A stretch of 16,273 nucleotides of DNA from a virus (taxonomy: Duplodnaviria; Heunggongvirae; Uroviricota; Caudoviricetes): IMG/VR virus record IMGVR_UViG_2802429239_000001, positions 1 to 16,273 of that record; one strand, written 5' to 3'. Shown here piece by piece: positions 1-15,725 of the stretch. Both the position numbers and the translations under genes were made by a program. Positions within the stretch are counted from its first letter, which is position 1; the number at the start of each line of letters is the position of its first letter. The notes under the pieces were generated by a model, which saw only the letters and a program-made list of their open reading frames with translations, was not told the origin of the DNA and made no database searches.

Positions 1-792
1 ATGTCCTTAAATGGAGTCAGTGCTGCGATGCGTGAACGGGTATCGCAGCAGTTAAAGGAAATTGAACGGCGGTATGGTGTGAAAGTGCTGTACGCCTGCG
101 AATCAGGGAGTCGCGGCTGGGGTTTTGCTTCGCCAGACAGCGATTATGATGTGCGTTTTTTGTATGTTCATCCGCTGGAATGGTATCTGCGGGTGGAGTC
201 GCCGCGCGATGTTATCGAACTGCCCATCGACGACGAGTTGGATGTTTCAGGCTGGGAGTGGCGTAAGGCGCTGGGATTATTGAAAGGCGCGAACCCGACG
301 CTGATTGAATGGCTGGACTCACCGGTGGTCTATCAGCAAGACGAAGAAACGATAACGGCGCTAAAAGCGATGACGCCGAAGTGGTTTTCTCCGCTACGTG
401 CGCGCTGGCATTATTATTCGATGGCGCGAAAAAACTTTCGCGGTTATTTGCAGGGCGACGAAGTTCGGCTGAAAAAATACTTTTACGTACTGCGCCCGCT
501 ATTGGCTGTGCGCTGGGTCGAATCGGGTAAAGGTGTGCCGCCAATGCGCTTTGCCGAGCTACTGGCGGGAAGCGAACTTGATGCGCCGTTACGCGCAGAA
601 ATAGACGAATTGCTGGAACGTAAACAGCGCGCAGGAGAAGCGGAATATGGTCCGCGCCGTCCATTGCTACATGCGTTTATTCGTGCAGAACTGGTGCGTG
701 GAGAAATTCCACCGATTTTACCGGACAGCAGAGACGGCGATGTTCGGGAGCTAGATAATTTGCTGTATCAAACAGTATTGCGCCGGGCATAA
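1..792 (+). CDS. Pol-beta-superfamily nucleotidyltransferase, function unknown
   Basis: 263-aa ORF with ATG at 1. N-terminal motif GSRGWGFASPDSDYD fits the G[GS]-x9-13-DxD signature of Pol-beta-type NTases, followed by a helical C-terminal region. Stop codon sits in the loop of the hairpin at 781..801. Confidence 0.6.
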   Translation: MSLNGVSAAMRERVSQQLKEIERRYGVKVLYACESGSRGWGFASPDSDYDVRFLYVHPLEWYLRVESPRDVIELPIDDELDVSGWEWRKALGLLKGANPTLIEWLDSPVVYQQDEETITALKAMTPKWFSPLRARWHYYSMARKNFRGYLQGDEVRLKKYFYVLRPLLAVRWVESGKGVPPMRFAELLAGSELDAPLRAEIDELLERKQRAGEAEYGPRRPLLHAFIRAELVRGEIPPILPDSRDGDVRELDNLLYQTVLRRA

Positions 793-801
793 AGCCCGGC
801 G
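781..801 (+). terminator. Hairpin between convergent genes, likely intrinsic terminator for the NTase gene
   Basis: Perfect 8-bp GC-rich inverted repeat CGCCGGGC / GCCCGGCG with 5-nt loop, followed on the plus strand by TGATTTATT. It lies between the NTase stop (790..792) and the stop of the minus-strand gene (806..808). Confidence 0.4.
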
Positions 802-805
802 TGAT

Positions 806-1261
806 TTATTGCTGGTATTGCCAACTGCTGACTAAAGCGTACAAGTGGTTTGGAGAATAGCGCCAGCTTTCCTTCAGTTGCAGAAATTCAGCACAAAATT
901 CACTGCAAAACAGGCGATCGCGCTGTTCTTTATTACCGGTAATAATTCCTAATGCTCCGCGCCAGTCATATTTCTTGCCATCATGTTTACGGAAAAAAGT
1001 TTCCACATCCTGAAGGCTGGCCTGGAGCGGCAGCATATCCCACTTATCCGCAGGTAACGGCATTATCTTTCCGCGTACACCGCGATCGCGCAGTGATGCA
1101 GAGTAACAAAGGTAACTCTTTTCACCATGCTTAACGGCTAATTCACAGTGGGAATAACTACCGCGTGTGATTTTACGGGTAAGCCAGTCAGCCAGTCGGG
1201 CAATACCAAGGTGTTCTGTTCGGCCCTTATAACAAGCGAGCCAGACAGTGGTTTTACTCAT
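806..1261 (-). CDS. Small protein with possible permuted papain-like (YiiX/YaeF-type) cysteine hydrolase fold; function uncertain
   Basis: 151-aa ORF whose start overlaps the stop of the upstream gene by 4 nt (translational coupling). A His-containing segment (SYSHCELAV) precedes a Cys motif (LFCSEFCAEF), the His-before-Cys order I recall for permuted papain-fold proteins. Family assignment is from memory only. Confidence 0.4.
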   Translation of the reverse strand: MSKTTVWLACYKGRTEHLGIARLADWLTRKITRGSYSHCELAVKHGEKSYLCYSASLRDRGVRGKIMPLPADKWDMLPLQASLQDVETFFRKHDGKKYDWRGALGIITGNKEQRDRLFCSEFCAEFLQLKESWRYSPNHLYALVSSWQYQQ

Positions 1262-1863
1262 GGTTGCCAGCCTGTGGAGTAATCGTAGTCGAGCACCGCC
1301 TGAATATCGTCCAGTGCTTTCACCGCCGCGATATGGCGCTGAGCGTTGGCGAACAGGCGCATATCGTGATCCATTGTTACCGATTCAAACTGAGCGGCGA
1401 TTTCGTTGGTTAACTCAATCAGACCGTTATTTTTAGTTTTCCACATTAAACCTGGAGGGATTTTTTTCTCCGCTCCCATTTTAGTGAGTGAAAGCTGTTG
1501 GATACGGCTGCTTGTATCACTGTGGAAGTGATGGTTGTTGATGATGATGTAATCTACCGTTATTTCATCACGTCGATTTTTTATTTCCTGTGTAACCTGT
1601 GCCTTGGTATTCTCAAGTGCAATGGTAAATAATGTTTTGTCATATACCCATTTATCATTCTCTAAGATGTAAAAATCACCCGGCGGTGGTGTGGTGATAA
1701 TTTTGAATGGGTCAAGACATATCCAGCAGATATTATCCTTTAATTTCCATTGTTCATCATTTACTGGTATTACCGAGTTCGGTAACACAACATTTAATAA
1801 AGAATCATCTATCCAGTCAATAACTTCAAAAGTTACTGGATGGTAATACGCATATCGTGCCAT
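1258..1863 (-). CDS. Putative tail fiber assembly/chaperone protein (positional call)
   Basis: 201-aa ORF starting 5 nt after the tail fiber stop, in the position occupied by P2 G / Mu U-type fiber chaperones. Visibly AT-rich compared with the rest of the tail cluster. No conserved motif recognised with confidence. Confidence 0.4.
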   Translation of the reverse strand: MARYAYYHPVTFEVIDWIDDSLLNVVLPNSVIPVNDEQWKLKDNICWICLDPFKIITTPPPGDFYILENDKWVYDKTLFTIALENTKAQVTQEIKNRRDEITVDYIIINNHHFHSDTSSRIQQLSLTKMGAEKKIPPGLMWKTKNNGLIELTNEIAAQFESVTMDHDMRLFANAQRHIAAVKALDDIQAVLDYDYSTGWQP

Positions 1864-1867
1864 ATTT

Positions 1868-3421
1868 TCACCATGATATTTTTACAAAGCCATCTGAGCC
1901 GCGTCCGCCGGAAAAAGATGCTGATGTTTGATTATTTGCTGCACTACCACCAGCACCACCGGCACCATAACCAACGGCATTACCTCCGTTAGAAAGGGCT
2001 AAACCAATCCCCCCTAGGCCATATAGTGAATTCATTCCATTCCCACCAGGAGCAGAGTGTTGGTCAACCATGGTATTCCCACTACCGTTTCCACCTGTTC
2101 CCCCGTAAGCTACGCTGTCAGCAAATGATGAGTTCCCGCCTTGCATGCCATCTGAGCCATGAACATTCCAAAGAATACCTCCAGTTGATCCCATCTTTGA
2201 TTCTAATTTTCCCCCTTGACCACCTACACCTCCCGCTCCGACAGTGACAGCGTAATTTGTTCCTGGAATGACTGTGACTATTGATAATTTTGTTTCTCCG
2301 CATTGACCGCCAAAACCCTGTGTACTATATGGAAAACCAGAGTTTCCTTTTGCGTATCCACCGCCACCGCCACCGCCACCGCCACCGAGCATTTCTATAA
2401 AAAGTAAGGACACCCCATCAGGAACAGTAAACGTTCCATTGGTGGTAAAGAACTGGATGTGAGAATTCGTTGACCTACTATATGCAGCACCAGCCTTATC
2501 ATACGCCGCTTTCACCGCACTCGGCGTAGCCGCCTCCGTCGTACTGTTGCTATCCGTCGCATTATTAAGCTTCACAATCCCTTTTTGCGACAGGGTGCCG
2601 TCTGGAACACCCGTAATCTGTCCCCATGGGTGAGTATGGTTTCCCGCAGCCTTACTATTCGCCAGGTCATACGCCGCCTTCACCGCGCTCGGTGTTGCCG
2701 CCTCTGTCGTGCTGGTGCTATCAATCGCGTTACTAAGCTTCACAATCCCTTTTTGCGTCAGCGTACCATCCGGAATATCAGTAATCTGACTCCAGGTATG
2801 ACGATGATTTCGTGCCTCAATCATCGCCGCTTTCACCGCTTTTGGCGTAGCCGCTTTGGTTTCGTCATCACTGTCAGTGGCATTACTTAACTGCGTAAAG
2901 CCTTTTTGCGATAACGTAGCATCAGGGTGATTAGTCGAACGTTCATGTTCATCCAGTTGCGAATCAACATAATCTCGTGTTGCCAGCACAATACTGGGGT
3001 CAACGGTGAGTGTTACCGCTGCCGTGTTGGAAACTTCCATAATGAGACGAATGCAAACTTGCTTACCGCTGCCGCCGGGTAATAGCGGTTTATACGACTC
3101 CGGGAATTTACCGATAGCAATGAGTTCACCGTCAGTATCAAAAACACCGACTTCACGTACATACCAGCCGCCGATATTTTCGGGCAGTACAAGTTCCGCA
3201 ATTAACCAGTTAGGATTATTGGGCGCAACTGTTAATGTATTTAAATCACCTCGCCAGACTTCATGACGTAATTTAGTTTGGCTGACGGTGGGTTCATAAT
3301 ATTGCCCTCCGCTGTCGCCAACAGCCATTTTTTGTAGATGAAGCTGTTTTTTATCCGCCAGAGCATTAGCAATTTTTGCCATCCCTCTGTCGGTGAGTAG
3401 AGTATAAAACTCATTATCCAT
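1868..3421 (-). CDS. Tail fiber protein (P2 gpH / Mu S-like N-terminus, tandem fiber repeats, Gly-rich C-terminal tip)
   Basis: 517 aa. N-terminal 150 aa follow the P2 H-type pattern (MAVGDSGG..., HEVWRGDLN..., IAELVLPENIGGWYVREVGVFDTDGELIA..., ESYKP..., ATRDYVD). Three degenerate ~55-aa repeats follow (TLSQKG[IF]VKL[SN]NA.DS...TEAATP.AVKAAYD). The C-terminal ~180 aa are extremely Gly-rich, including a 10-residue poly-Gly. Confidence 0.9.
   Translation of the reverse strand: MDNEFYTLLTDRGMAKIANALADKKQLHLQKMAVGDSGGQYYEPTVSQTKLRHEVWRGDLNTLTVAPNNPNWLIAELVLPENIGGWYVREVGVFDTDGELIAIGKFPESYKPLLPGGSGKQVCIRLIMEVSNTAAVTLTVDPSIVLATRDYVDSQLDEHERSTNHPDATLSQKGFTQLSNATDSDDETKAATPKAVKAAMIEARNHRHTWSQITDIPDGTLTQKGIVKLSNAIDSTSTTEAATPSAVKAAYDLANSKAAGNHTHPWGQITGVPDGTLSQKGIVKLNNATDSNSTTEAATPSAVKAAYDKAGAAYSRSTNSHIQFFTTNGTFTVPDGVSLLFIEMLGGGGGGGGGGYAKGNSGFPYSTQGFGGQCGETKLSIVTVIPGTNYAVTVGAGGVGGQGGKLESKMGSTGGILWNVHGSDGMQGGNSSFADSVAYGGTGGNGSGNTMVDQHSAPGGNGMNSLYGLGGIGLALSNGGNAVGYGAGGAGGSAANNQTSASFSGGRGSDGFVKISW
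2358..2387 (-). repeat. Perfect hexanucleotide tandem repeat (CCACCG)x5, encoding the poly-Gly run of the tail fiber
   Basis: Plus-strand CCACCG repeated 5 times without interruption; on the coding strand this reads GGTGGC/GGTGGC... giving GGGGGGGGGG. Confidence 0.85.
2464..2914 (-). repeat. Three degenerate tandem repeats (~170-180 bp each) inside the tail fiber gene
   Basis: Long near-identical DNA stretches recur, e.g. AAGCTTCACAATCCCTTTTTGCG and GCCGCCTTCACCGC.CTCGG.GT.GCCGCCTC.GTCGT; they correspond to the protein repeats. Boundaries are approximate. Confidence 0.7.
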
Positions 3422-3423
3422 AA

Positions 3424-4071
3424 TTACTCCGGGTAAATAGATGTAATTTCAAGGCTCCATTGCCCTGTTCCGTAATAGATTGATGTGTTTTGCTGTACTT
3501 CCCGTATCTGGAAAGGTAAAACCGTCGTCAGTTCACCACCATAAAGTGCACAGCCAATAACAGGAATAGCACTTTGGTTAATGATCCAGACAATTAATGC
3601 TTCCAGTTTTGAACGTGTGTTTTTATATTCATGAATGAGTTCTACCAGATTATTGAAAAGGTTTTCATCCATGCCTTTATCCACCAGCTCTATATCAACC
3701 TTAAAAAAATAAGCCTTCCCCCCATATTCAAACCATTCTGAAATAGTTCCTGGTAGCGAAAGTATTTCCAGCACCCGCCGTACCGCCCAAATCGTTCCTT
3801 TATATTTATGCAGCTCAATGGCTTGCTTAATTAACTCGCGCTTCTCCCGTTCATCAGTGGTAAATAACCAACCTTCCAGCCCCTGAACGTGAAATTGTTC
3901 TGCAAGGGCAGGTAATGCCGAAGCATCAACCAGGTCTACCAGATAAACCATCAACGCTGTCAGATCGAGTTGGGCAAAACGCTCGGCAGCGATATTTGCC
4001 AGAGTTGAAAAACGCTCATCGCTGGCAAGCGGCGGTGGCGGCAGCAATTTATCCATCGCTGACTCCGGCAA
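3424..4071 (-). CDS. Baseplate/tail protein, P2 gpI-like (Mu gp48-like)
   Basis: 215 aa. Motifs HKYKGTIWAVRRVLEILS and a C-terminal ...YPE parallel the P2 gpI pattern (HCHKGTIGAIRRVVEPLG ... YPG) as I recall it. Sits between the gpJ-like gene and the tail fiber, as in P2/Mu. Confidence 0.8.
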   Translation of the reverse strand: MPESAMDKLLPPPPLASDERFSTLANIAAERFAQLDLTALMVYLVDLVDASALPALAEQFHVQGLEGWLFTTDEREKRELIKQAIELHKYKGTIWAVRRVLEILSLPGTISEWFEYGGKAYFFKVDIELVDKGMDENLFNNLVELIHEYKNTRSKLEALIVWIINQSAIPVIGCALYGGELTTVLPFQIREVQQNTSIYYGTGQWSLEITSIYPE

Positions 4072-5164
4072 TCGTGACGTCTATCGCGGTGCATTCCGCC
4101 CACTCATGCGCCTGCAAAATACGTTTTGTAGGCATATTCAGCGCAACGTCATAGACACCATCGACTTGTAACACTTTGATTATCTGGTTTGGCACAATGT
4201 CCCGTCCCAGATGTTTCTGCCGCTGTTGCGTCCAGAGGCTAATCGCTTTACGCGCCGCAGCCAGCGTTGTCTCCTGATCGGCAGTGGTAAACAGTGTGAG
4301 CTGCGCACGGATTTCATACGGCACCCTAACGGCGCATTTCGCACTTACTTTGTCGGTCAGCGGACGTTTTTTCTCCTTGCTAACCTCCAGTTCAATTTGC
4401 GCGAGCAGTTCCACGCCCGGCAGACCATTCAGCGTTAGCGGGTAGATCTCCACGCAGCCTTCTGGCAATCCTTCGTCCGGCCCCAGTACCGCGACGTCAA
4501 TAATCGACTGGCTTACGGAAAGCGTATGAAAGCGGTAGGCACCATAGCTGCCCGCATTGCTGAAACTTTCCGGCGCCAGTTGGATCCGCTGGCGTAGTGC
4601 GTCATCACTCTCTTCACCGCAGCCGCCGGTTGAGGCCGTCAGGTTGGTCACGCTGATATCGTAATAACCAATCCTGTCAACAAGGGCGCTAATCTGTGCA
4701 GGCTGCCAGCCATTGCCCGCTTCGCCTGTTGCCAGACTGGTGGCGGGAACGGCGATATGCAAACTTCCCGCCGGAATCAGAACATCTTCATCGGTAGCAA
4801 ACATCACGCTGTCAGAGGCGCTGGCACGTGTTCCTTGTGGAATTAGAATGTTATTTCGATTCTTACTGGCTACCGAAAACAGCAACGTGGTTTTTGCCGG
4901 TTGTGCAGGTAAGCGGTGAACGCCCACCAGCTCACCTAAATAATCCAGCATTGGCGCGCGGGAATACGCGACCAGATTCTGTTTCGCCGCTTCCTGAATG
5001 GCGATGCGTACAAGGTTTTCACGATAGGCAAAAAGGTCAATCAGCAACCGCTCGGCCTGTGCCGGGTAGAGCTTTTTGCCGCTGGCATCTTCATACTGCG
5101 CAATCATCTCGCTGGTAATTTGCGCAGGATCGCGGTCAATAAAATCGGGTTCGGCTATCGCCAT
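4049..5164 (-). CDS. Baseplate assembly protein J (gpJ-like)
   Basis: 371 aa with gpJ-type segments (LRQRIQLAPESFSNAGSYGAYRFHTLSVSQ..., ...GRDIVPNQIIKVLQVDGVYDV...). Overlaps the gpW-like gene upstream and the gpI-like gene downstream. Confidence 0.85.
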   Translation of the reverse strand: MAIAEPDFIDRDPAQITSEMIAQYEDASGKKLYPAQAERLLIDLFAYRENLVRIAIQEAAKQNLVAYSRAPMLDYLGELVGVHRLPAQPAKTTLLFSVASKNRNNILIPQGTRASASDSVMFATDEDVLIPAGSLHIAVPATSLATGEAGNGWQPAQISALVDRIGYYDISVTNLTASTGGCGEESDDALRQRIQLAPESFSNAGSYGAYRFHTLSVSQSIIDVAVLGPDEGLPEGCVEIYPLTLNGLPGVELLAQIELEVSKEKKRPLTDKVSAKCAVRVPYEIRAQLTLFTTADQETTLAAARKAISLWTQQRQKHLGRDIVPNQIIKVLQVDGVYDVALNMPTKRILQAHEWAECTAIDVTIAGVSDG

Positions 5165-5514
5165 AACACCTCCGTTGAGTTGATTACGCCGTCAGCGGCG
5201 CGCCATTGCACACGTAACGTCAGATGTTCCCCGTCGATTACCGGTGTCACCTTCAGCAACCGGCAGCGCGGTTCCCACTGGCGGATGGCCTCTACCGACT
5301 CCCTTACCACATGCGGAATCGCCCGCTCGATGGGATAATCGATGTAGTGCCACAAGTTGCTGCCAAACAGCGGTCTGTGGGGATCACTGCCGCGCGGTGT
5401 GCGCAGAATGATGTGTATTGCCTGGTGAATATCATCCAGTCCGCAGACGTATTCTTCAGGCCGCTGCAAGGCTGGTTGCCAGTGCAGCGTAGAGGGGCGT
5501 GTTGTCGTGTTCAT
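5155..5514 (-). CDS. Baseplate wedge protein, gpW / gp25-like
   Basis: 119 aa; segment LDDIHQAIHIILRTPRGSDPHRPLFGSNLWHYIDYP matches the gpW/gp25 core (cf. P2 W LEHISQSIGDILRTPVGSRVMRRDYGSLLASMIDQP from memory). Confidence 0.8.
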   Translation of the reverse strand: MNTTTRPSTLHWQPALQRPEEYVCGLDDIHQAIHIILRTPRGSDPHRPLFGSNLWHYIDYPIERAIPHVVRESVEAIRQWEPRCRLLKVTPVIDGEHLTLRVQWRAADGVINSTEVLWR

Positions 5515-5575
5515 GAGGGTATTTTCGCCCTGAACAGGCGGCGGGGATATTAAAGCGATTTAAAAAACTGATTGA

Positions 5576-5607
5576 TTAAAAAGAGAAAACCCGCCATCAG
5601 GCGGGTT
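5576..5607 (-). terminator. Intrinsic-terminator-like hairpin plus U-tract between the gpV and gpW genes
   Basis: On the minus-strand transcript, just after the gpV stop (5613..5615): AACCCGCC-UGAU-GGCGGGUU (8-bp GC-rich stem, 4-nt loop) followed directly by UUCUCUUUUU. Confidence 0.55.
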
Positions 5608-5612
5608 AAACG

Positions 5613-6314
5613 TCAGTGTGAATGGTGGTTGGAGTTGCCACCGCTGTCCTGCAATGTGCCGCTGGCCTGAACGTTACCAATCACATTAACATTGCCAGTT
5701 ATCGTGGCGGCGTTGCCGATGCCTCCACTTCCTGCCATGCCACCAAGCCAGGTGAGTTTTTTCATCACCGTGACGTTGCCGGTAAAGGTGCTCATGGGCG
5801 CATCTACCGTCACTGCTGCCGCTTTAACATCGACCTTACTGGCTTCAATGCTGACATCGGTGGCTTTCACATCAACAGTGTCGGAAGTCACGGTGACGTG
5901 TTGGGCTTTAACCTCAACGTTGGGCGATGTCAGGCTGGTACGGTCAATAACCTCAATCACGATTTTTTCGATGCCACCATTAATCGTAAGCTGGTGGGTG
6001 CTGCGGTCATATTCAAACGCTGCGCCATCAGAAAACTGGACATAGCGTTTGTCGCGCGATGCTACTGGCGCGGTATCTACCGTTGAATATACTGCGCCCA
6101 GCACCACGCCATCTTCACCGTTATCATCCAGCAGAACTTCCACCTGTTCGCCCATATCCGGTAGCCAGTAATCCTTATTGTCCTGAGAATTGCGCTGCAG
6201 CACCGCAAGCCAGTTACTCTTCAGATTGTCACACTCTGGTAGCGTGACCCGCACCCGAACGCTGGTTTCGTCAATATCGCTGATAATCCCCGTTTGCCGG
6301 GTTACTCCTTTCAT
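5613..6314 (-). CDS. Baseplate spike/assembly protein V (gpV-like)
   Basis: 233 aa. N-terminal OB-like region with a GEQV motif and the FxDGAxxEYD segment parallels P2 gpV; a repetitive V.V.-rich beta-helix-like section follows; C-terminus ends in a His cluster (NHHSH). Confidence 0.85.
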   Translation of the reverse strand: MKGVTRQTGIISDIDETSVRVRVTLPECDNLKSNWLAVLQRNSQDNKDYWLPDMGEQVEVLLDDNGEDGVVLGAVYSTVDTAPVASRDKRYVQFSDGAAFEYDRSTHQLTINGGIEKIVIEVIDRTSLTSPNVEVKAQHVTVTSDTVDVKATDVSIEASKVDVKAAAVTVDAPMSTFTGNVTVMKKLTWLGGMAGSGGIGNAATITGNVNVIGNVQASGTLQDSGGNSNHHSH

Positions 6315-6323
6315 ATTGCCTCC

Positions 6324-7364
6324 TTACTGGCTGGTCGCTGGCCCGCGTGAAACGTCGATTTCAGTGGTATAGCCGCTGCGCACAAAACTGTGAGTAGATT
6401 TATCAATCAGCCACTGACCGGAAAGCACACCAAAATCGGTTAGCTCGATTTTATTGCCTGCCGTCAGTTCCGGGCAGCCCATCATCCTGAGCGTTCCGGT
6501 TTGTTGATATTCGTTGTGGCTGTCGAGCGCGGCGTTGGCCTTTGCCTGTGCCGCGCCAACGTCCGGCGCCCGACTGTTCAGTTTCAGCGTGTCGGCACTG
6601 GTGCCGACTCCACGGGCAGACGGCTTTTGCTGGCTGTCGTGAGTGTAGATAACCAGTTCTTTTTTCTTACTATTTTGATGCTGTACGGTGGCGTTTTTGT
6701 AGATGCGGTTAATGGTATCTTTGAAGGTGAAATGCGAAACGTCTTTGCGGTCGATCTTTTTCACCGGCGCCAGGCAGCGCAGCGTGGGTAAATGCGAAAA
6801 AATCAGTTCTTTGGTGGTCACCTTTACCGCATAGCCATATTCGCTGGCCAGGCGCTTGAGAAATCCGACATCGGTTTCGCCGTACTGTGTCACCCGGTCA
6901 ATCGTCAGCGGCTCGATTTTGCCCACCAGCGTCAGGCCGTGAGTTTGCGCGATACGGCTGGCGATGGCTGAAAGCGTTGTCTCTTCAAAGCCCTGACTGT
7001 TACGGGTGCGCAGCGCCTGATTGACGGAAGTGGCGATGCCATCAATATTTACCGTGGAAGGTGGTGCTGAAATGTCAATTTTATCAATGATATATTGACC
7101 ACAATCGAGCAGTTTTTCCCCCTGATAACCCATATGTAGCGCCAGCGTATCGCCTTTGCCGGGATACCACTCTTTTATCCAGCGTCCATCGGTGTCATCC
7201 AGTGTGATCGCGATGGTATCCGACTCGTTTTTAATACTGTCCTGGTAACTGATGCTGGTGACATAAGGCGTGATGTCATAAGTGATATCTTTATGCCCAT
7301 ACCACAGGGTAAAAATGGGCGCGAGCGTGGCAAAGACGCCGCCAGTTACGCTTATCTCAGCCAT
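6324..7364 (-). CDS. Tail/baseplate hub protein, gpD-like (Mu gp44-like)
   Basis: 346 aa, in the gpD position immediately upstream of the gpV gene; overall pattern (ITLDDTDG..., tail ...GQWLIDKSTHSF...GYTTEIDV) is consistent with the phage late control gene D family. Confidence 0.8.
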   Translation of the reverse strand: MAEISVTGGVFATLAPIFTLWYGHKDITYDITPYVTSISYQDSIKNESDTIAITLDDTDGRWIKEWYPGKGDTLALHMGYQGEKLLDCGQYIIDKIDISAPPSTVNIDGIATSVNQALRTRNSQGFEETTLSAIASRIAQTHGLTLVGKIEPLTIDRVTQYGETDVGFLKRLASEYGYAVKVTTKELIFSHLPTLRCLAPVKKIDRKDVSHFTFKDTINRIYKNATVQHQNSKKKELVIYTHDSQQKPSARGVGTSADTLKLNSRAPDVGAAQAKANAALDSHNEYQQTGTLRMMGCPELTAGNKIELTDFGVLSGQWLIDKSTHSFVRSGYTTEIDVSRGPATSQ

Positions 7365-7561
7365 GGTGGGATCTCCGATACGGTCTTGTTGACGGTAATG
7401 ACCGGAATAATGAGCTGAATACCGGCAGGCAGTACCGGGTAAATGGCGACATGTGGATTGGCGGCGATAATGCGTTCATAAGCCAGTGCATCACCGTAGT
7501 AATGCCATGCCAGGTTATCCCAGCGTTCGCCGTCGGTGGTGATATGTTCAAGGTATCGCAT
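7352..7561 (-). CDS. Tail protein X (gpX-like, LysM-like fold)
   Basis: 69 aa; GERWDNLAWHYYGDALAYERIIAANPHVAIYPVLPAGIQLIIP parallels P2 gpX (GDTLDAICVRYYGRTEGVVETVLAANPGLAELGAVLPHGTAVELP, from memory). Confidence 0.75.
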   Translation of the reverse strand: MRYLEHITTDGERWDNLAWHYYGDALAYERIIAANPHVAIYPVLPAGIQLIIPVITVNKTVSEIPPWLR

Positions 7562-8514
7562 TACCAGCTCCTCGTAATGGTCGCGGCAGCGAGCTGAGTC
7601 ACTGCGGGAGTGGTTTGCTGTACCGTTGTACGCGCCTGCTCAACCAACGTTGTGGCTTTATCGAAAGTTGCTTCGGCGATGGCGCTGGTGATGCTGCCAA
7701 ACAGTTCTTGTGCATGGTCAACCAGTGTCCCGGCGTCTTTGGCGCAGTCGCGGATACCCGGCAGGCTACCCAGCAATGCTTTAATCTGCGCCGACAACGC
7801 TTTTGGTAATCCTGCCAGCGTTTGCAGATCCATCGGCTGTTTAAACAGGGTTTCGATGGCATCGATAGTCTTTTTCAACGACTTAATTATCTTTTCACAC
7901 TTTTCTTTTAACGCTTTGGCCTCTTTAATCAGTGCTTTGACCTTTGCCACTGTTTTTTTAATATCTTCAATGGATTGCGCCAGTTCATCGAGCATCTCTT
8001 TGGCTTTGCGCATACCTTCTTCAATGGCGTTCAATATCTGATCCAACCAGGACTCCACCTTGTCCGGAAAATCGCTCGCCTTTTCGTCAATATTAGGCTC
8101 CTGGGTGGTAATCGCCGGGGGCAGGAGTGGGTTTTTCGGATCGCCGGTATACTCCTGGAGCGACATTGTTCCGCTTTGGGCAATCACATTGCCCCAGGGA
8201 TCGGTGTGCTGGTGAGTGGCGGTTAACTCTGTAATTACAAACCAGCCGCGATAATCACCGTTGCCAAACACCAGCGCCATTGCTTTGTGGGCAAGCATGG
8301 CTTCACGCAGTCGATTCAGCTCTGTTGTGGGTTGGCAAAACTGGCTGTGCAGGAAAAATTCCAGCGCCAGCATGTCCAGCTTATCGCCAATAAACTGCAC
8401 GCCAGGTTTGCCTTCAATACGGGCATGTGTGGCGTAATCCACGCCCATTGTGCTTTTAAAGCCATCCCAGAATGTGACAACTTTAAATTCAATCTCACCT
8501 AAAACGGCATACAT
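7561..8514 (-). CDS. gpU-like tail protein with long C-terminal coiled-coil extension (Mu gp43 / DNA-circulation-N-like)
   Basis: 317 aa. The N-terminal ~130 aa follow the gpU pattern (MYAVLGEIEF..., FGNGDYRGWFVITELTATHQ). The C-terminal ~150 aa are K/E/A-rich heptad-like helix (EEGMRKAKEMLDELAQSIEDIKKTVAKVKALIKEAKALKEKCEKIIKSLKKTIDAIE). Start overlaps the tape measure stop by 1 nt. Confidence 0.7.
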   Translation of the reverse strand: MYAVLGEIEFKVVTFWDGFKSTMGVDYATHARIEGKPGVQFIGDKLDMLALEFFLHSQFCQPTTELNRLREAMLAHKAMALVFGNGDYRGWFVITELTATHQHTDPWGNVIAQSGTMSLQEYTGDPKNPLLPPAITTQEPNIDEKASDFPDKVESWLDQILNAIEEGMRKAKEMLDELAQSIEDIKKTVAKVKALIKEAKALKEKCEKIIKSLKKTIDAIETLFKQPMDLQTLAGLPKALSAQIKALLGSLPGIRDCAKDAGTLVDHAQELFGSITSAIAEATFDKATTLVEQARTTVQQTTPAVTQLAAATITRSW

Positions 8515-10874
8515 CAGGCATACCCCCGGCGCTGTTGCTGCGCCATTACGTCGTTAATCATTCTTTCCAGTTCGCGTTTACTCATCGTCAATACGTTCTG
8601 AATGTCTTTAGTGGTGTTTTGTCCGTTACCCTGCACGGTAATTTGTGGCGAAAAATTCACCTGGACTTTTCCTGGGGAACGGGAGGGTAGCGTCGCCGGT
8701 TTGGTTACGGATTTACCTGGTAAAGAGGCCGACGCGGGTTTTGCCACTGGCGCCGATGACGGCGTTGTCGTTTTGCTGGATGGCGCGAGTTGTTTGCCCA
8801 CAGGCGGCGTTAAAAGCGCACCGGCAACGCCTGGAACAACGGTCGCGGGGGAGACTGATGCGGTATTAGTCGTGCCTGTAACAGTCGCAGCCGATGCTTC
8901 TGTGCCGATCCCCATTGTGGCTTTTAGCCAGTCTGGCATGGCGTTTTTGACCTGATCAATAATGCCTTTCAGAGCGGGGAAAGCATTCATTATGCCGTCG
9001 GCCAGGCTACCCAGTATATTGCTGCCGAACTCGCTAAAACTCGCAGGCATCTCAACACCAAACCAATTCATCACACCGGAAAAGGCGCTGTAGAACAGCC
9101 CCAGTGGCGACCAGTCGAGAATCAACCGGCTAATACCTGCAATGCCACCGTCAAAGGCCGTGGTAATACGTTTCCAGATGGCGGAAAAGAACCTGGTGAT
9201 AGGTTCCCAGTTGCGATAAATCAGATAAGCCGCGCCCGCAATCGCAGTGATGACCAGACCAATGGGATTCATCAGTAGCACCCGGCCTAGTGAGAGAACG
9301 GTCCGACCAACCAGTTTCAATGCTCCGCTCAGGCCACGACCAAGCAGTTGCGTTAGCCATTTTGCGCCGCCACCCAATGACTTAACCGCCGATAGCACCT
9401 TACTCGCTGCGCCTCCGGGCGCCAGACTTGCCCTGACTTTCAGGAAGATATCGACCAGACGAATAAACGGCGAGGCGATGAAGTTCGCGCCCAGCTTTAA
9501 AACATTCAGCGCACCGTTAAACAGCCAAATCGCCCCGACGATTTTCGCAATGTTTTGCACTAGTGCCGGGTGTTCGCGTAGCCAGGCGCTGAACTGGCGA
9601 ATAACCGGCGCAAGGCTTTGCGCCAGCTCGCCAATCGCCGGCATAAGCTGCAAGCCAATGCTGAGCCATAAATCATTTAACGCCAGTTGTAACGCTTTAG
9701 TCTGTTCAATGGGCGAAGCCATTTGCGCAGAAAAGTCGGCATCAATCAGATTCTTGCTGGTGGCTTGCATGGCAGAGGCTTTTAGCTGGCGATACTCTTC
9801 CATATTCGCCAGCATAGGGGCCAGGAATTCCACCGTTTGCGCATCGCCGAACATTTCGCCCAGATTAAACTGCGTCACCATCGATTGCAGCGCAGTGCTG
9901 CGGGCAGATAAATCTTCAATCTGCATGGTGCGTTTGAAGGTATCGAGGATCGCCGGATTCATCTTCTCAAGCTGCATTTGCACGATATGAGTCATAGCTT
10001 CGCTAACACCCATACCGTTTTGCTGATGCTCAAGCAGAGAACCTTGCAGATCGACGCCCTGGCTGGCGAACCAGCTATCGGTTTTTTTCGAAAAGGTGGT
10101 TTGTAGAAAATGGTCGAAATTCTCCGCCGCTGCACTGGCGCTGGCACCGTTTTTCATGGCGATCTGCATGGTGGCGGTCAGTTCAGCCATACCTTCCAGA
10201 CCCTGAGCGCCGGTTTTACCTGCAAATTTCTCTATCCACTGCGTTTGTTCGGCAATGGCAGGCCCACCGCTTTTGGTAACGCTGTACATCATGTTTTGCG
10301 CAGTGTGGAAATTTTCCGGGGCAATATTCAGTCGATCATGAGTCGCGAGCGCGGCTTTCGCCCATGTTTCGGCGCTGTCGCGCGTGGCGGTGGCGGCTTT
10401 GGCGATCTCCGGCATATAGCGGTTGAGATCCTGCAAGGACGATATGTTGCCTTCAACTAAGGTCAGAGCGGCGGACTGTAACGTGGTCTGCTGCTGGTTA
10501 AAATCCATACTCCAGTCGCGCAGATTCAGGCTGAGCGTCTCGCGAGTGGCATCACTCATCCCACCTTTGGTCGCCATATTGACCATATTGTCCTGAAACT
10601 CATACGGCAACTTCCAGTCGGGGGCTTCAACATTGAATACTTTGCTAAATTGCCCGGCAAATGTTTGGGTTTTCTCCATCAGATTAGCGCGGCTGCGGCT
10701 ATTTTCCTCCAGGCGGAGAGCGGAATCGGCAAGTCGCTGCGTTAGTTTGATAACTGTCGCTTGCTGAGTAGAGAGAGTTAACAATGTTCTGGCGTTGAGT
10801 GAGCCGTAACGGGCTATTGCCTGCGTCAACGTCTCATTACGCGCCTGAAGCTGGGTAATAATATCGTTGGCCAA
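8514..10874 (-). CDS. Tail tape measure protein
   Basis: 786 aa, the largest ORF, located between the chaperone and gpU-like genes. Helical N-terminal half, hydrophobic/Gly-rich central segments and a Pro/Ser/Thr/Ala-rich low-complexity C-terminal region. Apparent TTG start with GAGA-type RBS upstream; the real start could be internal. Confidence 0.85.
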   Translation of the reverse strand: MANDIITQLQARNETLTQAIARYGSLNARTLLTLSTQQATVIKLTQRLADSALRLEENSRSRANLMEKTQTFAGQFSKVFNVEAPDWKLPYEFQDNMVNMATKGGMSDATRETLSLNLRDWSMDFNQQQTTLQSAALTLVEGNISSLQDLNRYMPEIAKAATATRDSAETWAKAALATHDRLNIAPENFHTAQNMMYSVTKSGGPAIAEQTQWIEKFAGKTGAQGLEGMAELTATMQIAMKNGASASAAAENFDHFLQTTFSKKTDSWFASQGVDLQGSLLEHQQNGMGVSEAMTHIVQMQLEKMNPAILDTFKRTMQIEDLSARSTALQSMVTQFNLGEMFGDAQTVEFLAPMLANMEEYRQLKASAMQATSKNLIDADFSAQMASPIEQTKALQLALNDLWLSIGLQLMPAIGELAQSLAPVIRQFSAWLREHPALVQNIAKIVGAIWLFNGALNVLKLGANFIASPFIRLVDIFLKVRASLAPGGAASKVLSAVKSLGGGAKWLTQLLGRGLSGALKLVGRTVLSLGRVLLMNPIGLVITAIAGAAYLIYRNWEPITRFFSAIWKRITTAFDGGIAGISRLILDWSPLGLFYSAFSGVMNWFGVEMPASFSEFGSNILGSLADGIMNAFPALKGIIDQVKNAMPDWLKATMGIGTEASAATVTGTTNTASVSPATVVPGVAGALLTPPVGKQLAPSSKTTTPSSAPVAKPASASLPGKSVTKPATLPSRSPGKVQVNFSPQITVQGNGQNTTKDIQNVLTMSKRELERMINDVMAQQQRRGYA

Positions 10875-10965
10875 AATTGTTTCTCTTTAAATATTGATAA
10901 TGGCCCGCTGGTTATTTTTCTAAAAAAAAGGGGCAGGGAAGAAATAAACCTGACGGGCTTGGGAA

Positions 10966-10990
10966 ACTCGCAGACATCAGGTCTGCGAGT
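10966..10990 (-). other. Perfect 10-bp inverted repeat (stem-loop) in the chaperone-tape measure intergenic gap
   Basis: ACTCGCAGAC-ATCAG-GTCTGCGAGT on the plus strand (10-bp stem, 5-nt loop). Not followed by a clean U-tract on either strand. Confidence 0.6.
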
Positions 10991-11064
10991 CATATTCGAT
11001 TTTTATTTGGGCGTTGGCTTCATCCAGCCAGTTGCTAAAGTCATCGACGGTAAGGGCGTCTATC

Positions 11065-11382
11065 TCACTGGGCGGAAAGCGAAACCATCTCGCCAGTAAC
11101 GCCATCGCTTGCCATAACAGTGGCGGATTCTGTAGCCACGCTAAGCATGGATTGAAATCGTTTCTGCAATGCCTGGTAATCCAGCAAATCCATTTCAGCT
11201 AAATCTTCTGGCACCAGTCCGGTCATTGCAGCCATTAGCGGTTCATCCCATTCTTCTGGTTTTTCGCTGATCCGGCGCGCGTTGCGCATATCTTTTACTT
11301 TCAGGCGACGTAATTGCAGAGTGTTAATTACGTCTCCCGCCGCTGAAGTAAACGGGAACTGTAAGGTATAATGTTCTTTCAT
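11065..11382 (-). CDS. Tail assembly chaperone (P2 gpE / Mu gp41-like)
   Basis: 105-aa acidic protein encoded between the tube and tape measure genes, the conserved position of the gpG/gpE-type chaperone. Good RBS context. Confidence 0.65.
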   Translation of the reverse strand: MKEHYTLQFPFTSAAGDVINTLQLRRLKVKDMRNARRISEKPEEWDEPLMAAMTGLVPEDLAEMDLLDYQALQKRFQSMLSVATESATVMASDGVTGEMVSLSAQ

Positions 11383-11409
11383 TTTGTATCCTTATTGGTC
11401 ATGCGGAAA

Positions 11410-11427
11410 TCGGGGCCGTAGCCCCGA
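11410..11427 (-). other. GC-rich stem-loop directly after the tail tube gene
   Basis: TCGGGGC-CGTA-GCCCCGA (7-bp stem, 4-nt loop) in the 50-bp gap between the tube stop and the chaperone start; followed on the minus strand by only a short UUUCC. Confidence 0.45.
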
Positions 11428-11432
11428 ATAAC

Positions 11433-11957
11433 TTAGCCACCGATGTTATTGCGATAGGTACTTAATTGATCCACGCCGTTAACGCGGAAAATATTCGCCA
11501 GGTAATCCAGTTCCAGCAGCGTTTCACCATCGACCACCTGTTTAATATAGGTACAACCAAAGGCGCTGCTGAATTCCGGGTTTTCATTCTGTTTAAATGT
11601 TCCCAATGGATTCTTTTTAAACATGACAGTCAAATGAGTGACTAACGCTAATTGATTCGCTTTCCCCTGGGAGTTATAGCAATCAATACTGGAGCGGCAC
11701 TGTAATGCTACCGCCTGCCACGGGTTTGCCGTTTTACGCATGACGTCCTGATAAAAGGAGTTCCATTTAATTTCCCCTTCCAGTTTATCGAAACCTGCCG
11801 GGAGTTCGATTTTGCCGACCATGCCCAGTGCTTTATGCTCCTGCATAATTAAACTGACATCCGGTAATTTAATTTCGGTTGCACGACCTAAAAGGTTATT
11901 ACCATCGAGATAAATATTGGCATTGGTAATACGGTTAATTTGAATTTTTCCAGCCAT
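11433..11957 (-). CDS. Tail tube protein (P2 FII / Mu M-like)
   Basis: 174 aa. N-terminal pattern and the C-terminal NGVDQLSTYRNNIGG parallel the P2 FII C-terminus (..NGVDRLEQHRRNIGL, from memory). Start overlaps the sheath stop by 1 nt. Confidence 0.85.
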   Translation of the reverse strand: MAGKIQINRITNANIYLDGNNLLGRATEIKLPDVSLIMQEHKALGMVGKIELPAGFDKLEGEIKWNSFYQDVMRKTANPWQAVALQCRSSIDCYNSQGKANQLALVTHLTVMFKKNPLGTFKQNENPEFSSAFGCTYIKQVVDGETLLELDYLANIFRVNGVDQLSTYRNNIGG

Positions 11958-13387
11958 TAGCTATTGCTCTCCAGAGAGACTAAATATTCAGAGGTAATTT
12001 CAGTTTCAAACGTCAGACGTTCCAGCGGCGGTGGCGGGGTGAATTTATAGCTCAGCAATAAATGCCCGGCACTGAGTTCGGTCGGTGAATTTCGCGCCGG
12101 ATCGTACCAGCACTCAAAGCCAAGCAGTGCGCCGTCGGCAATCAGCTTACGGCCCCAGGTATTTACCGACTCGGTCAGGGCATCAATTAGCGCCTGATTA
12201 ATCGGCATATCGATATACTGCTGGCTGAAATAACGGATCGACTCGTTAATCACATCACCCGTGCGGCGAACGTTTTCAAAGTTACGCATATGGGTCACGG
12301 TTGGCCATGCCGCAGTGCGGTTGCCCCATAAACGCAGACCAGAGCCGTAACTATTGAAAACTGTGGTAATGCCGTTTTCGTTGAGCTGATTCACTTCACT
12401 TTGCGGGTCATCAACCATTGCGGAAAGTGAACGTTCGATACCGATAATGCCCTGAATTTCCTGGTTTGAGTTGCTCCACCAGAAACCTTTCTCCAGGTCT
12501 ACTTTGGCACGCAGTCCGGCAGCGCGTGAAGATAGCGGTTCGAGAACTTCTTGGTTGGTTGAGCCGTCATAAACTTTGACGTGCGGATAGCACAAACGCG
12601 CACGGTCAGAACTGGTGTTGAAGTTGATTGCGCCTTTCGAGCCGCGACCAGCCAGTACCTGCTGGAATGTAGTACCGATTGGGGCGTCAATGTAGGCGAT
12701 AGCACCGAGTTTTTCCGCCTGAGCAATCAGTTCGGTGGTGACCGATTTTTGCGTACAGAAAACGGGAGCAAGCAGGATTTTGGCGTAGAAACCATACAGG
12801 TTATAGGTATCCTGTAGCAGTTTCATCCCCGTGCGATCGCCTGCGGTATTAACGGCGCCAATAATATCGGCTGCGGTAACTTTTGTTGGATCGGCCCATG
12901 AGTAATAGGCGCAAACTTTCGCTCCGGCAGGGATCTCAGTTTCTGCACGAGTGATTATTCCTGTTTGTTCATCAACATGAAACGCTGCGCTGCTATACGT
13001 AGTGGCTGATGTTGAAGAGGGTTTCAGGACGACATTGCGCACCGCACGATGAGCCAGTTTTGCCTGGTTGTTGGAATCAAAAGTGATACTCTCATTGCTG
13101 ATGCTGGAGCCATGTTTTGCCGGATCCAGTACGTTAATCACCACCACCGTACCGGCGCCGTGGTCATAAATCGCCTTCAGCGCCTGCGGGATAGTAAAGT
13201 TAGCCTGAGTCGAGCCAAACTGCGCGGCATCGCTTTCAGAAAGGCACAATGTTGGTTTGTTTACCGGACCGCATGGTGCACTACCGATTAAAGCGATTAC
13301 AGCGGATTTTACCGCTTTAACCGGGCGCGGACCGGTTTCAATTTCAATGGTTTCTACACCGTGCAGGTAATTAGCTGCCATGTACAA
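11957..13387 (-). CDS. Contractile tail sheath protein
   Basis: 476 aa, immediately upstream of the tube gene; size, position and N-terminal region (..GVETIEIETGPRPVKAVKSAVIALIGSAP..) are typical of Mu L / P2 FI-type sheath proteins. Confidence 0.85.
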   Translation of the reverse strand: MYMAANYLHGVETIEIETGPRPVKAVKSAVIALIGSAPCGPVNKPTLCLSESDAAQFGSTQANFTIPQALKAIYDHGAGTVVVINVLDPAKHGSSISNESITFDSNNQAKLAHRAVRNVVLKPSSTSATTYSSAAFHVDEQTGIITRAETEIPAGAKVCAYYSWADPTKVTAADIIGAVNTAGDRTGMKLLQDTYNLYGFYAKILLAPVFCTQKSVTTELIAQAEKLGAIAYIDAPIGTTFQQVLAGRGSKGAINFNTSSDRARLCYPHVKVYDGSTNQEVLEPLSSRAAGLRAKVDLEKGFWWSNSNQEIQGIIGIERSLSAMVDDPQSEVNQLNENGITTVFNSYGSGLRLWGNRTAAWPTVTHMRNFENVRRTGDVINESIRYFSQQYIDMPINQALIDALTESVNTWGRKLIADGALLGFECWYDPARNSPTELSAGHLLLSYKFTPPPPLERLTFETEITSEYLVSLESNS

Positions 13388-13568
13388 TTTCCTCTCCGTT
13401 ATTTTGTTCTTCCTGAGTGATGACAGGAGTCAGGTGATTGCGGGCAATCATGGTCATAACCCACTCGTTTTCTTCTGGCAGATCAATTTCACTGTTCGGC
13501 CACAATAAGATTTCTTGTCCGTCGGCAAGGGTGACGCCGCTTGCCGGGCCGTTGTAGATGTATTTCAT
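13371..13568 (-). CDS. Small conserved tail-operon protein, function unknown
   Basis: 65-aa ORF coupled by overlap to both neighbours, in the position of the small protein that precedes the sheath gene in Mu-like tail operons. Confidence 0.45.
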   Translation of the reverse strand: MKYIYNGPASGVTLADGQEILLWPNSEIDLPEENEWVMTMIARNHLTPVITQEEQNNGEEIVHGS

Positions 13569-14020
13569 TCAGTTTCCTCGTAATTAACTTCAGTAAGCAG
13601 GGTAAGGTCCGTGCTTTCCCGTTTTGCGATAAACAGCGATCTGGTCGCCATTTCCATGATGTAGCGGCAGAAACCACCGCTCTCGCCTGCATTGATTTCT
13701 GTTTCAAGCCAAAGAAGACGCTCGCAATCAGGAAGCTGGATCCCCCCCAATGCGCTGCGTATGCGATCCAGTGCGTTTAACGCGCCACAATTTTTGCCAA
13801 CAATAACGGTGGCAGTTAAACGGAGCGTTTGCTGTTGCACGAGGGCATCACTGCTTTCAGGCATGGCAAATAGAGAACCGCTATAATTAATAATCACTGT
13901 AACTTGCTGCGTCTGCGGAATATATTTATTGGCATCAACCGATGAAATAAATACGTCCATTTCGGGATTCTGTTCACGTAATCTGGTCACAACAGAATTA
14001 ATTACAGATAAAATTTCCAT
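13565..14020 (-). CDS. Putative tail completion/terminator-type protein, first gene of the tail operon (positional call)
   Basis: 151-aa ORF with an AAGGAA RBS about 9 nt upstream of the ATG; 4-nt overlap with the next gene. Contains a C7/G7 homopolymer at 13742..13748. Confidence 0.4.
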   Translation of the reverse strand: MEILSVINSVVTRLREQNPEMDVFISSVDANKYIPQTQQVTVIINYSGSLFAMPESSDALVQQQTLRLTATVIVGKNCGALNALDRIRSALGGIQLPDCERLLWLETEINAGESGGFCRYIMEMATRSLFIAKRESTDLTLLTEVNYEETE

Positions 14021-14126
14021 ATAGGGTGTTCCTTAATTACTGCTCACTTCGTTATCGTTGAAATGTATTCTGAAGCAGTGAAGGTGAAGAATCTTTTAAT
14101 GTGATTTAGAGAAAAAATTGAATGGC

Positions 14127-14162
14127 TATAAAAATCCCCACACTTACGTAAAGGTGGGGATG
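14127..14162 (-). terminator. Intrinsic-terminator-like hairpin after the lysis cassette
   Basis: On the minus-strand transcript, a few nt after the stop of the 104-aa gene: AUCCCCAC-(12-nt loop)-GUGGGGAU followed by UUUUUAUAG. Coordinates approximate to 1-2 nt. Confidence 0.5.
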
Positions 14163-14165
14163 TAT

Positions 14166-14480
14166 TTAATAGCTGCCACGTTGTAATAGCTCTATTTTGC
14201 TATATAAGGCATCCAGCTTTGCTTCTAATACTGCCTGGCCACGAAGATAATCTTCTCTGCGGACATAATGCAGCGGAAGCTCGGCACGAAATTCGAGAAA
14301 TTCTCTTTCCAGTTTCGACCAGCTTGTTTCTGATTCCCGGCGCGCGTTTTCCAGAGATTCAAAACGCTCATTAAGTCTTTTTTCAATTTGCGCTAACAGC
14401 AATTTTCCGGCAGCAAACATTAATCCAACGAAGGAAAGCATAAGGGAGATCACTTCCCAAAAATCGATACTGAGTTTCAT
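14166..14480 (-). CDS. Membrane-anchored coiled-coil protein, probable lysis accessory (i-spanin-like or releasin-like)
   Basis: 104 aa with one N-terminal transmembrane helix (VISLMLSFVGLMFAAGKLLLA) followed by a charged helical region; strong RBS (AGAGGGG); directly downstream of the transglycosylase gene. Confidence 0.5.
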   Translation of the reverse strand: MKLSIDFWEVISLMLSFVGLMFAAGKLLLAQIEKRLNERFESLENARRESETSWSKLEREFLEFRAELPLHYVRREDYLRGQAVLEAKLDALYSKIELLQRGSY

Positions 14481-14492
14481 CGGCCCCTCTGA

Positions 14493-15098: not shown

Positions 15099-15100
15099 CA

Positions 15101-15684: not shown

Positions 15685-15704
15685 TACTGTATGCACATAC
15701 AGTA
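15685..15704. promoter_or_regulatory. LexA operator (SOS box)
   Basis: TACTGTATGCACATACAGTA is a perfect palindrome with CTGT-N8-ACAG, differing from the 20-mer consensus TACTGTATATATATACAGTA only in the central positions. Confidence 0.7.
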
Positions 15705-15713: not shown

Positions 15714-15725
15714 ATGATACTCCAG

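Follow-up and report, generated by a model that had tools for sequence, protein, structure and literature searches.

A predicted permuted NlpC/P60 enzyme encoded directly after the tail fibre and its DUF4376 chaperone in a contractile-tail island

Introduction

What is a small gene for a papain-like protein doing at the end of a contractile-tail operon, directly behind the genes for the tail fibre and its chaperone? The question is raised by the IMG/VR virus record IMGVR_UViG_2802429239_000001, of which we analysed positions 1 to 16,273 (this whole stretch of 16,273 nucleotides (nt) is called the window below), and specifically by its gene for a protein of 151 amino acids (aa). Tail-fibre modules are the parts that are swapped to retarget phages and tailocins, and they are usually counted as two genes, the fibre and the chaperone. 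The explanation that we favour, with a probability of about 0.55, is that the 151-aa protein would be a late, cytoplasmic, generic acyl hydrolase or transferase of fibre modules that uses Cys, His and Tyr residues. Four rival explanations were ranked in the order of a host-directed "moron" enzyme, a particle-borne envelope hydrolase, a counter-defence deconjugase and a pseudo-enzyme. The fold and clade of the enzyme are already known; for the subfamily and its tight link to tail-fibre chaperones we found no account in the searchable literature.

Results

Predicted fold and active site of the 151-aa protein

806-1261, minus strand: predicted 151-aa enzyme, soluble and basic (pI 9.3), permuted NlpC/P60 of the YaeF/YiiX-like clade, from an uncurated family
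1148-1150, minus strand: codon of His38, the predicted catalytic histidine, in the motif YSHCE; invariant and aligned with His49 of Bacillus cereus PPNE (numbering of PMC3142127)
968-970, minus strand: codon of Tyr98, candidate NlpC/P60 active-site tyrosine, invariant in 149 representatives
905-907, minus strand: codon of Cys119, the predicted nucleophile, in the motif FCSEF; invariant and aligned with Cys154 of B. cereus PPNE

The original prediction had recognised in this protein a His...Cys pair in the order of permuted papain-fold (YiiX/YaeF-like) hydrolases, and both the conservation of these residues and the fold match bore it out. His38 and Cys119 were invariant in 52 homologues and in 149 representatives sharing less than 50% mutual identity. 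Trp74 and Tyr98 were likewise invariant in the 149 representatives, in at least 90% of which Ser37, Glu40, Ser56, Asp59, Gly61, Val62, Arg63, Ser120 and Glu121 were also conserved. In the predicted structure His38 begins a strand (residues 38-45) and Cys119 begins a helix (residues 119-126), and the catalytic order is permuted, with His38 before Cys119 and the cysteine at the N-terminus of the C-terminal helix. The profile of the 52 homologues matched the permuted NlpC/P60 enzyme 3kw0 of B. cereus (E = 9e-5), with SH placed over SH and FCSEF over ICSEF, and it matched YiiX of E. coli weakly. Tyr98 lies 21 residues ahead of Cys119 and may serve in the role of Tyr115 of YiiX and Tyr127 of the B. 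cereus enzyme (BcPPNE). The profile searches led to a permuted papain-fold family with conserved His and Cys, and not to a non-enzymatic family in which these residues vary. We are highly confident of this assignment of fold and active site. Since His38, Tyr98 and Cys119 are invariant, the 151-aa protein is probably an active cysteine enzyme, which would work through an acyl-thioester intermediate.

The third member of the catalytic triad was not found at its expected place. Glu64 of YiiX and BcPPNE aligned with position 55, where the window protein has Ala and the consensus Ser, neither of them acidic. One of the near-invariant residues Glu40, Ser56 or Asp59, perhaps Glu40, might substitute for it, and LRAT and PPPDE1 also lack a classical third triad residue (PMC3142127). 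This absence, together with the failure of the Pfam Peptidase_C92 model to detect the 151-aa protein, could suggest a non-catalytic structural or adaptor protein that has kept a papain-like fold. However, none of the 149 divergent representatives departs from Cys119, His38 or Tyr98, and pseudo-enzymes normally lose such residues, so that we regard a non-catalytic protein as extremely improbable.

An exhaustive profile search returned 4352 clusters at E <= 1e-3 and 246 at E <= 1e-30, and the best 150 of its matches were all small proteins of 132-232 aa. The 151-aa protein had no match in Pfam (E up to 1), NCBIfam or PADLOC; PF05708, the Pfam family Peptidase_C92, matched only two of the 149 relatives, weakly (best E 1.6e-4), and did not match the window protein. 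As judged from these comparisons, the family of the 151-aa protein is a distinct, uncurated subfamily. The protein did match phrog_1128 (1e-58), which carries the label "enoyl-CoA hydratase/carnithine racemase-like". We rejected this name, which GenBank also gives to SuMu gp51, Pm86 ORF70 and many Pasteurellaceae proteins: the predicted fold is that of permuted NlpC/P60 enzymes, and the 149 relatives matched just three Pfam families, none of them crotonase.

The 151-aa protein has a single domain, five cysteines and a maximum Kyte-Doolittle value of 0.25 over 19 residues, and no signal peptide, lipobox or membrane segment was seen in its sequence. A lipoprotein reading of residues 7-10 (WLAC) was discarded, as Cys10 is not conserved, the N-terminus is too short and polar, and these residues form a beta-strand in the model. 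Natural fusions were also set aside as a clue to function, the longer relatives having the appearance of mis-called starts or of read-through into a neighbouring lipobox gene. One relative (P0193) has a C-terminal extension with the lipobox LALAGC and resembles read-through into a spanin-like lipoprotein gene; another (L088, positions 1399-2356) lies directly upstream of a GH108-like gene, itself a faint match. These two neighbourhoods indicate that in some phages the family adjoins lysis genes and not the end of the operon.

The gene is coupled to those of tail-fibre chaperones

1868-3421, minus strand: tail fibre of 517 aa; Pfam matches Phage_tail_fib (4e-61), Phage_fiber_2 (1e-53) and Gly_rich_2 (4.9e-6), and PHROG tail families
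1258-1863, minus strand: chaperone of 201 aa (pI 5.05) with a DUF4376 domain, starting after a gap of 4 nt from the fibre stop codon
1258-1261, minus strand: ATGA, in which the chaperone stop codon and the 151-aa start codon overlap, giving translational coupling
777-805: hairpin with a 12-bp stem that includes 8 G-C pairs, between the convergent stops of the 151-aa gene and a nucleotidyltransferase gene, from a scan for terminator-like structures

The upstream partner in the module is a fibre with an N-terminal collar domain, three fibre repeats and a glycine-rich tip. The 201-aa protein that follows it had been called fibre-chaperone-like, and this call stands: its C-terminal residues 87-193 matched DUF4376 (PF14301) with 52.5 bits against a cut-off of 25 (7.8e-14), and it also matched the PHROG tail families phrog_1807 and phrog_2837. 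On these matches the 201-aa protein is identified as a DUF4376 tail-fibre chaperone. Two DUF4376 proteins of Alteromonas phages, V22 gp27 and A5 gp9, have been described as tail-fibre chaperones, and V22 gp27 was reported to be essential for the production of active fibres and to be needed for fibre folding or trimerisation (PMC10579305). These chaperones have a helical C-terminal body like that of intramolecular chaperone domains, and chaperone beta-strands pair with the fibre head (PMC10579305). In six comparisons with related loci, the N-terminal residues of the window chaperone (about 100) were variable and changed together with the fibre tip, while the DUF4376 domain was conserved, a division into variable N-terminus and conserved C-terminus that matches the published architecture.

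We examined the context of the 151-aa family at 79 genome loci with an upstream open reading frame (ORF), from Enterobacterales, Pasteurellaceae, Neisseriaceae and Moraxellaceae, and at 79 viral loci. At 56 of the 79 genome loci the start of the gene overlapped the stop of an upstream ORF of 170-270 aa, by 4 nt (24 loci), 8 nt (23 loci) or 11 nt (9 loci), and at 65 of 79 the gap was no more than 10 nt. Overlap was seen at 62/79 viral loci, and 75/79 were within 10 nt. Translational coupling is conserved in about 140 of 159 loci, which disfavours the earlier suggestion of an unrelated cargo gene. The 70 upstream partners fell into three unrelated C-terminal classes (35, 22 and 13 members), and by Pfam 35 were DUF4376 and 14 were Caudo_TAP proteins. 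The gene preceding the partner encoded a tail fibre, whose architecture varied widely between loci (Phage_fiber_2, Collar, Gp53-like_C, gp37 and J-type). The order of fibre, chaperone and enzyme was also present in the Mu-like myovirus SuMu and in the siphoviruses Pm86 and Mcat28, and distant homologues were found in the fibre regions of a P2-like element (L087) and of other phage contigs.

Among complete E. coli genomes, 196 carried the full 151-aa gene and 196 the sheath gene; three other matches to the 151-aa gene were partial, and the one examined was the scar of a deletion mediated by the insertion sequence (IS) IS1. Relative to E. coli strain EC9, the ratio of nonsynonymous to synonymous substitution rates (dN/dS) of the 151-aa gene was 0.056, indicating strong purifying selection. 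We consider it likely that the 151-aa enzyme is a member of the fibre module, the third after the fibre and the chaperone.

A scan of the minus strand from position 600 to 4200 gave no sigma-70-like promoter. The hairpin at 777-805 is probably where the tail operon ends, and it may terminate transcription from both directions; the T-tracts on both of its sides are weak.

The exchanged block lies upstream of the 151-aa gene

about 1555-2490, minus strand: exchanged specificity block, AT-rich at synonymous sites, made up of the fibre tip (about residues 311-517) and chaperone residues 1 to about 100; delimited by homology breaks and a G+C content at third codon positions (GC3) of 0.31
chaperone residues 1-100: GC 0.353, GC3 0.31
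chaperone residues 101-201: GC 0.469, GC3 0.55
fibre tip, residues 311-517: GC3 0.31
core tail genes: GC3 0.567

The original prediction had described two ORFs downstream of the fibre, overlapping by 4 nt, and the sequence and ORF coordinates agree with this. It had further taken both genes to be low in GC and to form a horizontally exchanged cassette. The first of these statements was correct for residues 1-100 of the 201-aa gene, which has an overall GC of 0.411 and a two-part composition, but not for its residues 101-201 or for the 151-aa gene. The latter (GC 0.471, GC3 0.45) lay within 0.5 standard deviations (SD) of the window mean (0.495, with an SD of 0.050 for windows of 456 nt), and was no outlier, as 23.5% of equal-sized windows were equally low or lower. 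The low GC3 of the fibre tip is invisible in total GC because glycine codons mask it.

The position of the exchange was obtained by comparing the window with six loci, namely E. coli EC9, E. coli FDAARGOS_497, L005, two Superficieibacter loci and one Lelliottia locus (L006, L020 and L008 are among them). At all six, homology from the side of the 151-aa gene ended at window positions 1554-1590, inside the chaperone gene where the DUF4376 domain begins, and it picked up again in the fibre gene at about 2360-2499, or at 2814-2825 in L020 and L008. The exchanged block is the fibre tip together with chaperone residues 1 to about 100, and the conserved flank includes the C-terminal domain of the chaperone and the 151-aa gene. 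The GC3 segments and the homology breaks agree with one another, so that an AT-rich block does exist but sits further upstream than the proposed two-gene cassette, which had been misplaced.

A second AT-rich mosaic joint was observed where the C-terminal half of a gpI-like baseplate protein (GC 0.38, window 3424-3750) meets the collar domain of the fibre (GC3 0.39, window 2900-3421). The homology breaks there fell at about 3472-3548 for L090 and about 3479-3515 for L020, which suggests that the junction of baseplate adaptor and fibre N-terminus is exchanged as a separate unit.

A proposed role in the fibre module and its rivals

We propose that the tail operon would end in a three-gene fibre module of fibre, DUF4376 chaperone and 151-aa enzyme. 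The enzyme would be a late product of the mRNA that also encodes the fibre and chaperone, synthesised in parallel with the chaperone, because the codons overlap, a promoter-like site is absent and the only hairpin follows the gene. It might act in the cytoplasm of the producer cell, on the fibre-chaperone complex or bound to it. It would be a generic accessory of fibre modules and not a receptor-matched factor; in the six-locus comparison it lay outside the block that is swapped with fibre specificity. By analogy, the bond that it attacks would more probably be of the acyl-amide, ester or isopeptide type (with a fatty-acyl or similar group) than part of peptidoglycan, because the closest structural relatives handle acyl groups. 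The crystal structure of YiiX shows a fatty acid in its hydrophobic S1 pocket (PMC3142127), LnsA is required for the N-acylation of lipoproteins (PMC7387801), and Tox-Act1 and the LRAT family act on lipids (PMC12994826); the PLAAT proteins and RID, too, have lipids or acyl groups as targets. A fibre-processing enzyme, one of the functions first suggested for the protein, is possible, and we put forward the specific cytoplasmic, fibre-directed role only tentatively.

Several observations weigh against this proposal. To our knowledge, P2 and Mu have no such third gene after their fibre and chaperone genes, and the enzyme is thus probably not generally required for fibre assembly. The position at the end of a tail operon, or between fibre and sheath genes as in the P2-like L087, is typical of moron genes. 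The nearest neighbour of a homologue came from the same host family in 68 of 69 cases, and identity between enzymes was 0.57 within and 0.54 between chaperone classes; this tracking of the host family, with little difference between classes, fits a host-directed target equally well as a fibre-directed one. Co-evolution of enzyme and chaperone class was tried as an argument and judged not decisive: nearest neighbours shared a class in 58 of 69 cases, against 29 expected, and the near-equal identities within and between classes indicate that recent common descent explains this sharing. With Ala55 or Ser at the position of Glu64, the chemistry could also differ from that of YiiX-type triads. Finally, our literature search on the enzyme family found no paper, and no experimental evidence on the substrate, partner or location of any member; the family is not mentioned in the main text of the SuMu paper, in the Mannheimia phage paper, in the E. 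coli ST131 "tailocin" paper, or in the papers retrieved on YiiX, permuted NlpC enzymes and tail fibres.

The points on position and host family lead to the first rival, a moron or cargo enzyme aimed at the producer cell, where it would alter an envelope lipid, a lipoprotein or another host factor and bring about superinfection exclusion, self-protection from the tailocin or a block to re-adsorption. The 151-aa gene is terminal, before the hairpin; its GC3 of 0.45 is intermediate between core and cassette; PHROGs files it under "moron, auxiliary metabolic gene and host takeover"; and its homologues follow chaperone class less closely than host family. The homologue at the P2-like locus L087 lies between the fibre genes and the sheath gene, which we take to be a known site of accessory genes in P2-like phages, and in other phages the receptor-blocking genes cor and llp adjoin receptor-binding genes. 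What we found at the window, however, departs from the usual features of a moron, as there is a 4-nt overlap and not a gap, no promoter-like site, a hairpin only downstream, and a GC content that does not deviate. The overlap with the chaperone stop in most of the 159 loci and the lack of a promoter-like site point to late co-expression, too late for remodelling of the envelope. Unlike Cor or Llp, the protein has no signal peptide, lipobox or membrane segment, and it lacks a PADLOC match. Nor does the enzyme change along with the fibre tip, which would be expected of a protective factor matched to the receptor. We consider a host-directed moron unlikely.

A location on the particle, as in the earlier suggestion of a particle-associated cell-wall hydrolase, would instead have the enzyme bound to the chaperone-capped fibre tip, where it would cleave a component of the target surface (an acyl amide of lipid A or lipoprotein, or peptidoglycan) and so aid adsorption or puncture. 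The protein is not listed in any virion or tailocin proteome, and the main text of the SuMu paper is silent on it. Five cysteines and the absence of secretion features suggest a cytoplasmic enzyme; peptidoglycan is out of reach of fibre tips, and the lysis cassette already supplies a lytic transglycosylase. The permuted order, the single domain of 151 aa and the lack of a signal peptide are not those of canonical NlpC/P60 peptidoglycan hydrolases, and the hydrophobic S1 pockets of the nearest structures, which are of a lipid type, were judged unsuitable for peptides (PMC3142127). The idea of a cell-wall hydrolase thus gained no specific support. A role as peptidoglycan hydrolase is unlikely, and we think a particle-borne envelope hydrolase of any kind quite unlikely.

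The cytoplasmic, fibre-directed role could take a more specific form in a dedicated fibre "editing" enzyme, a Cys/His isopeptidase, deacylase or acyltransferase that would remove a covalent modifier from, or install it on, lysines of the fibre or chaperone. In one version such editing would counter conjugation-type host defences (ubiquitin-like or acyl), and in another lipidation would help the fibre to engage the outer membrane. We judge a dedicated editing enzyme to be improbable. The rival of a counter-defence deconjugase, in which an isopeptidase or deacylase would strip host-attached modifiers (ubiquitin-like or acyl) from fibre lysines before assembly, is a pure analogy. The conjugation defence that has been described targets the central tail fibre of siphoviruses and not side fibres, the closest relatives of the 151-aa protein are of the YiiX type and not the PPPDE type, and anti-defence would be of little gain to a domesticated tailocin. 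We therefore hold the deconjugase to be very improbable.

The window as a contractile-tail island

11957-13387, minus strand: sheath gene, from the ORF list
8514-10874, minus strand: tape measure gene, from the ORF list
15617-15886, minus strand: 89-aa ORF within an AT-rich stretch near the Mor-type gene
one end of the window, divergent from the tail operon: Mor-type activator gene
1-792, plus strand: nucleotidyltransferase of the RlaP family (PF10127, 8.9e-97), converging on the tail operon

The window holds one contractile-tail operon on the minus strand, in the order holin, lytic transglycosylase, sheath, tube, tape measure, baseplate V/W/J/I, fibre and the two short ORFs, and inspection of the ORFs from the Mor-type gene to the 151-aa gene showed tail and lysis genes only. 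At its counterpart in E. coli EC9, 92% identical to the window, the tail genes lie between yjbD, slipin and nucleotidyltransferase genes on one side and lysC on the other, and this locus has no head, replication or integration genes. The gene content (sheath, tube, baseplate, fibre and lysis cassette, at a fixed chromosomal site) is that of an R-type tailocin island. As the EC9 counterpart lacks head, replication and integration genes, the window is, by gene content, a headless, tailocin-like contractile-tail island. We found no paper on this locus, and the E. coli ST131 "tailocin" paper concerns a different, P2-like prophage. Copies of the 151-aa gene with 95-98% identity were also present on IMG/VR contigs of 15-17 kb. 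Against E. coli copies, the 151-aa gene showed 95-99% identity in 151 genomes and the sheath gene 80-90% in 189 genomes; the 151-aa gene is thus closer to common E. coli alleles than the sheath gene is, which indicates that the window island is a recombinant of different lineages.

The stretch of lowest GC in the window (0.325), positions 15400-15900, separates the holin end of the tail operon from the divergent Mor-type gene and is probably a regulatory region. The nucleotidyltransferase had no match in PADLOC. In E. coli its gene pairs with a slipin-family gene (L001, 16169-18093; L090, 14063-15987), and homology to window 66-792 extends into Superficieibacter and Phytobacter loci, so that the nucleotidyltransferase-slipin pair appears to travel with the tail island.

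Two E. coli strains carried damaged islands. In FDAARGOS_497 (L090, 23944-32456) the tape-measure gene is interrupted by an IS26/TnAs1 resistance region with tet(A), aac(6')-Ib-cr, OXA-1 and catB; this has disabled the tail machine, but the fibre, chaperone and 151-aa genes are still intact. Of the tail cluster in MSB1_4I (L171, 2758-5799), an IS1-flanked deletion has spared just the final 64 nt of the 151-aa gene; IS4 interrupts the nucleotidyltransferase gene, and an internal stop breaks the slipin gene. These lesions in the tail, nucleotidyltransferase and slipin genes indicate that the whole island is decaying in that strain.

Discussion

A third, enzyme-encoding gene of the fibre module is conserved across myoviruses, siphoviruses and a domesticated E. 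coli tail island, with three classes of chaperone and many types of fibre. Pfam has no entry for its family, which numbers over 4000 sequence clusters and commonly carries the wrong name "enoyl-CoA hydratase". Retargeting designs that transfer just the fibre and chaperone might not work if fibre maturation or particle activity depends on the enzyme. Should its target be a host lipid or a protein modifier, the poorly understood YiiX-type bacterial enzymes would gain a first biological context. Were the fibre-editing reading true, it would make the enzyme an unrecognised enzymatic third component of fibre assembly in thousands of phages and tailocins. For exchange of specificity, the corrected boundary, which falls within the chaperone gene where its DUF4376 domain begins, is a natural splice point.

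The chaperone of the window has the same Pfam domain as V22 gp27 and A5 gp9, in the same C-terminal position (87-193 of 201 residues versus 92-184 of 195), and directly follows the fibre gene as they do; in contrast to the window, the published tables of the Alteromonas modules name no permuted-papain gene after the chaperone. The same logic of a fibre and chaperone pair at the end of a contractile-tail operon applies to P2 (H/G), Mu (S/U), lambda (Stf/Tfa) and the R2 pyocin (PA0620/PA0621). We know of no third, enzyme-encoding gene in these classical systems. The window chaperone belongs to DUF4376, whereas 14 of 70 loci pair the enzyme family with a Caudo_TAP chaperone.

With YiiX (PDB 2if6), BcPPNE (PDB 3kw0) and PF05708, the 151-aa protein shares the permuted NlpC/P60 core and the Cys/His dyad. 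It differs from YiiX and BcPPNE in its low identity (about 20%), in its shorter length (151 aa versus 180-214 aa in the deposited chains), in the Ala or Ser that its family has at the position of Glu64, and in escaping detection by the Pfam model. YiiX is encoded by a chromosomal gene, whereas the 151-aa gene sits in phage tail-fibre modules. The permuted papain or NlpC/P60 core with its Cys/His dyad is also shared with LnsA, with the LRAT/PLAAT proteins, with Tox-Act1, with TseH among the effectors of type VI secretion systems, and with MARTX RID, and these proteins illustrate that acyl (lipid) groups are what the permuted clade to which we assign the 151-aa enzyme typically handles.

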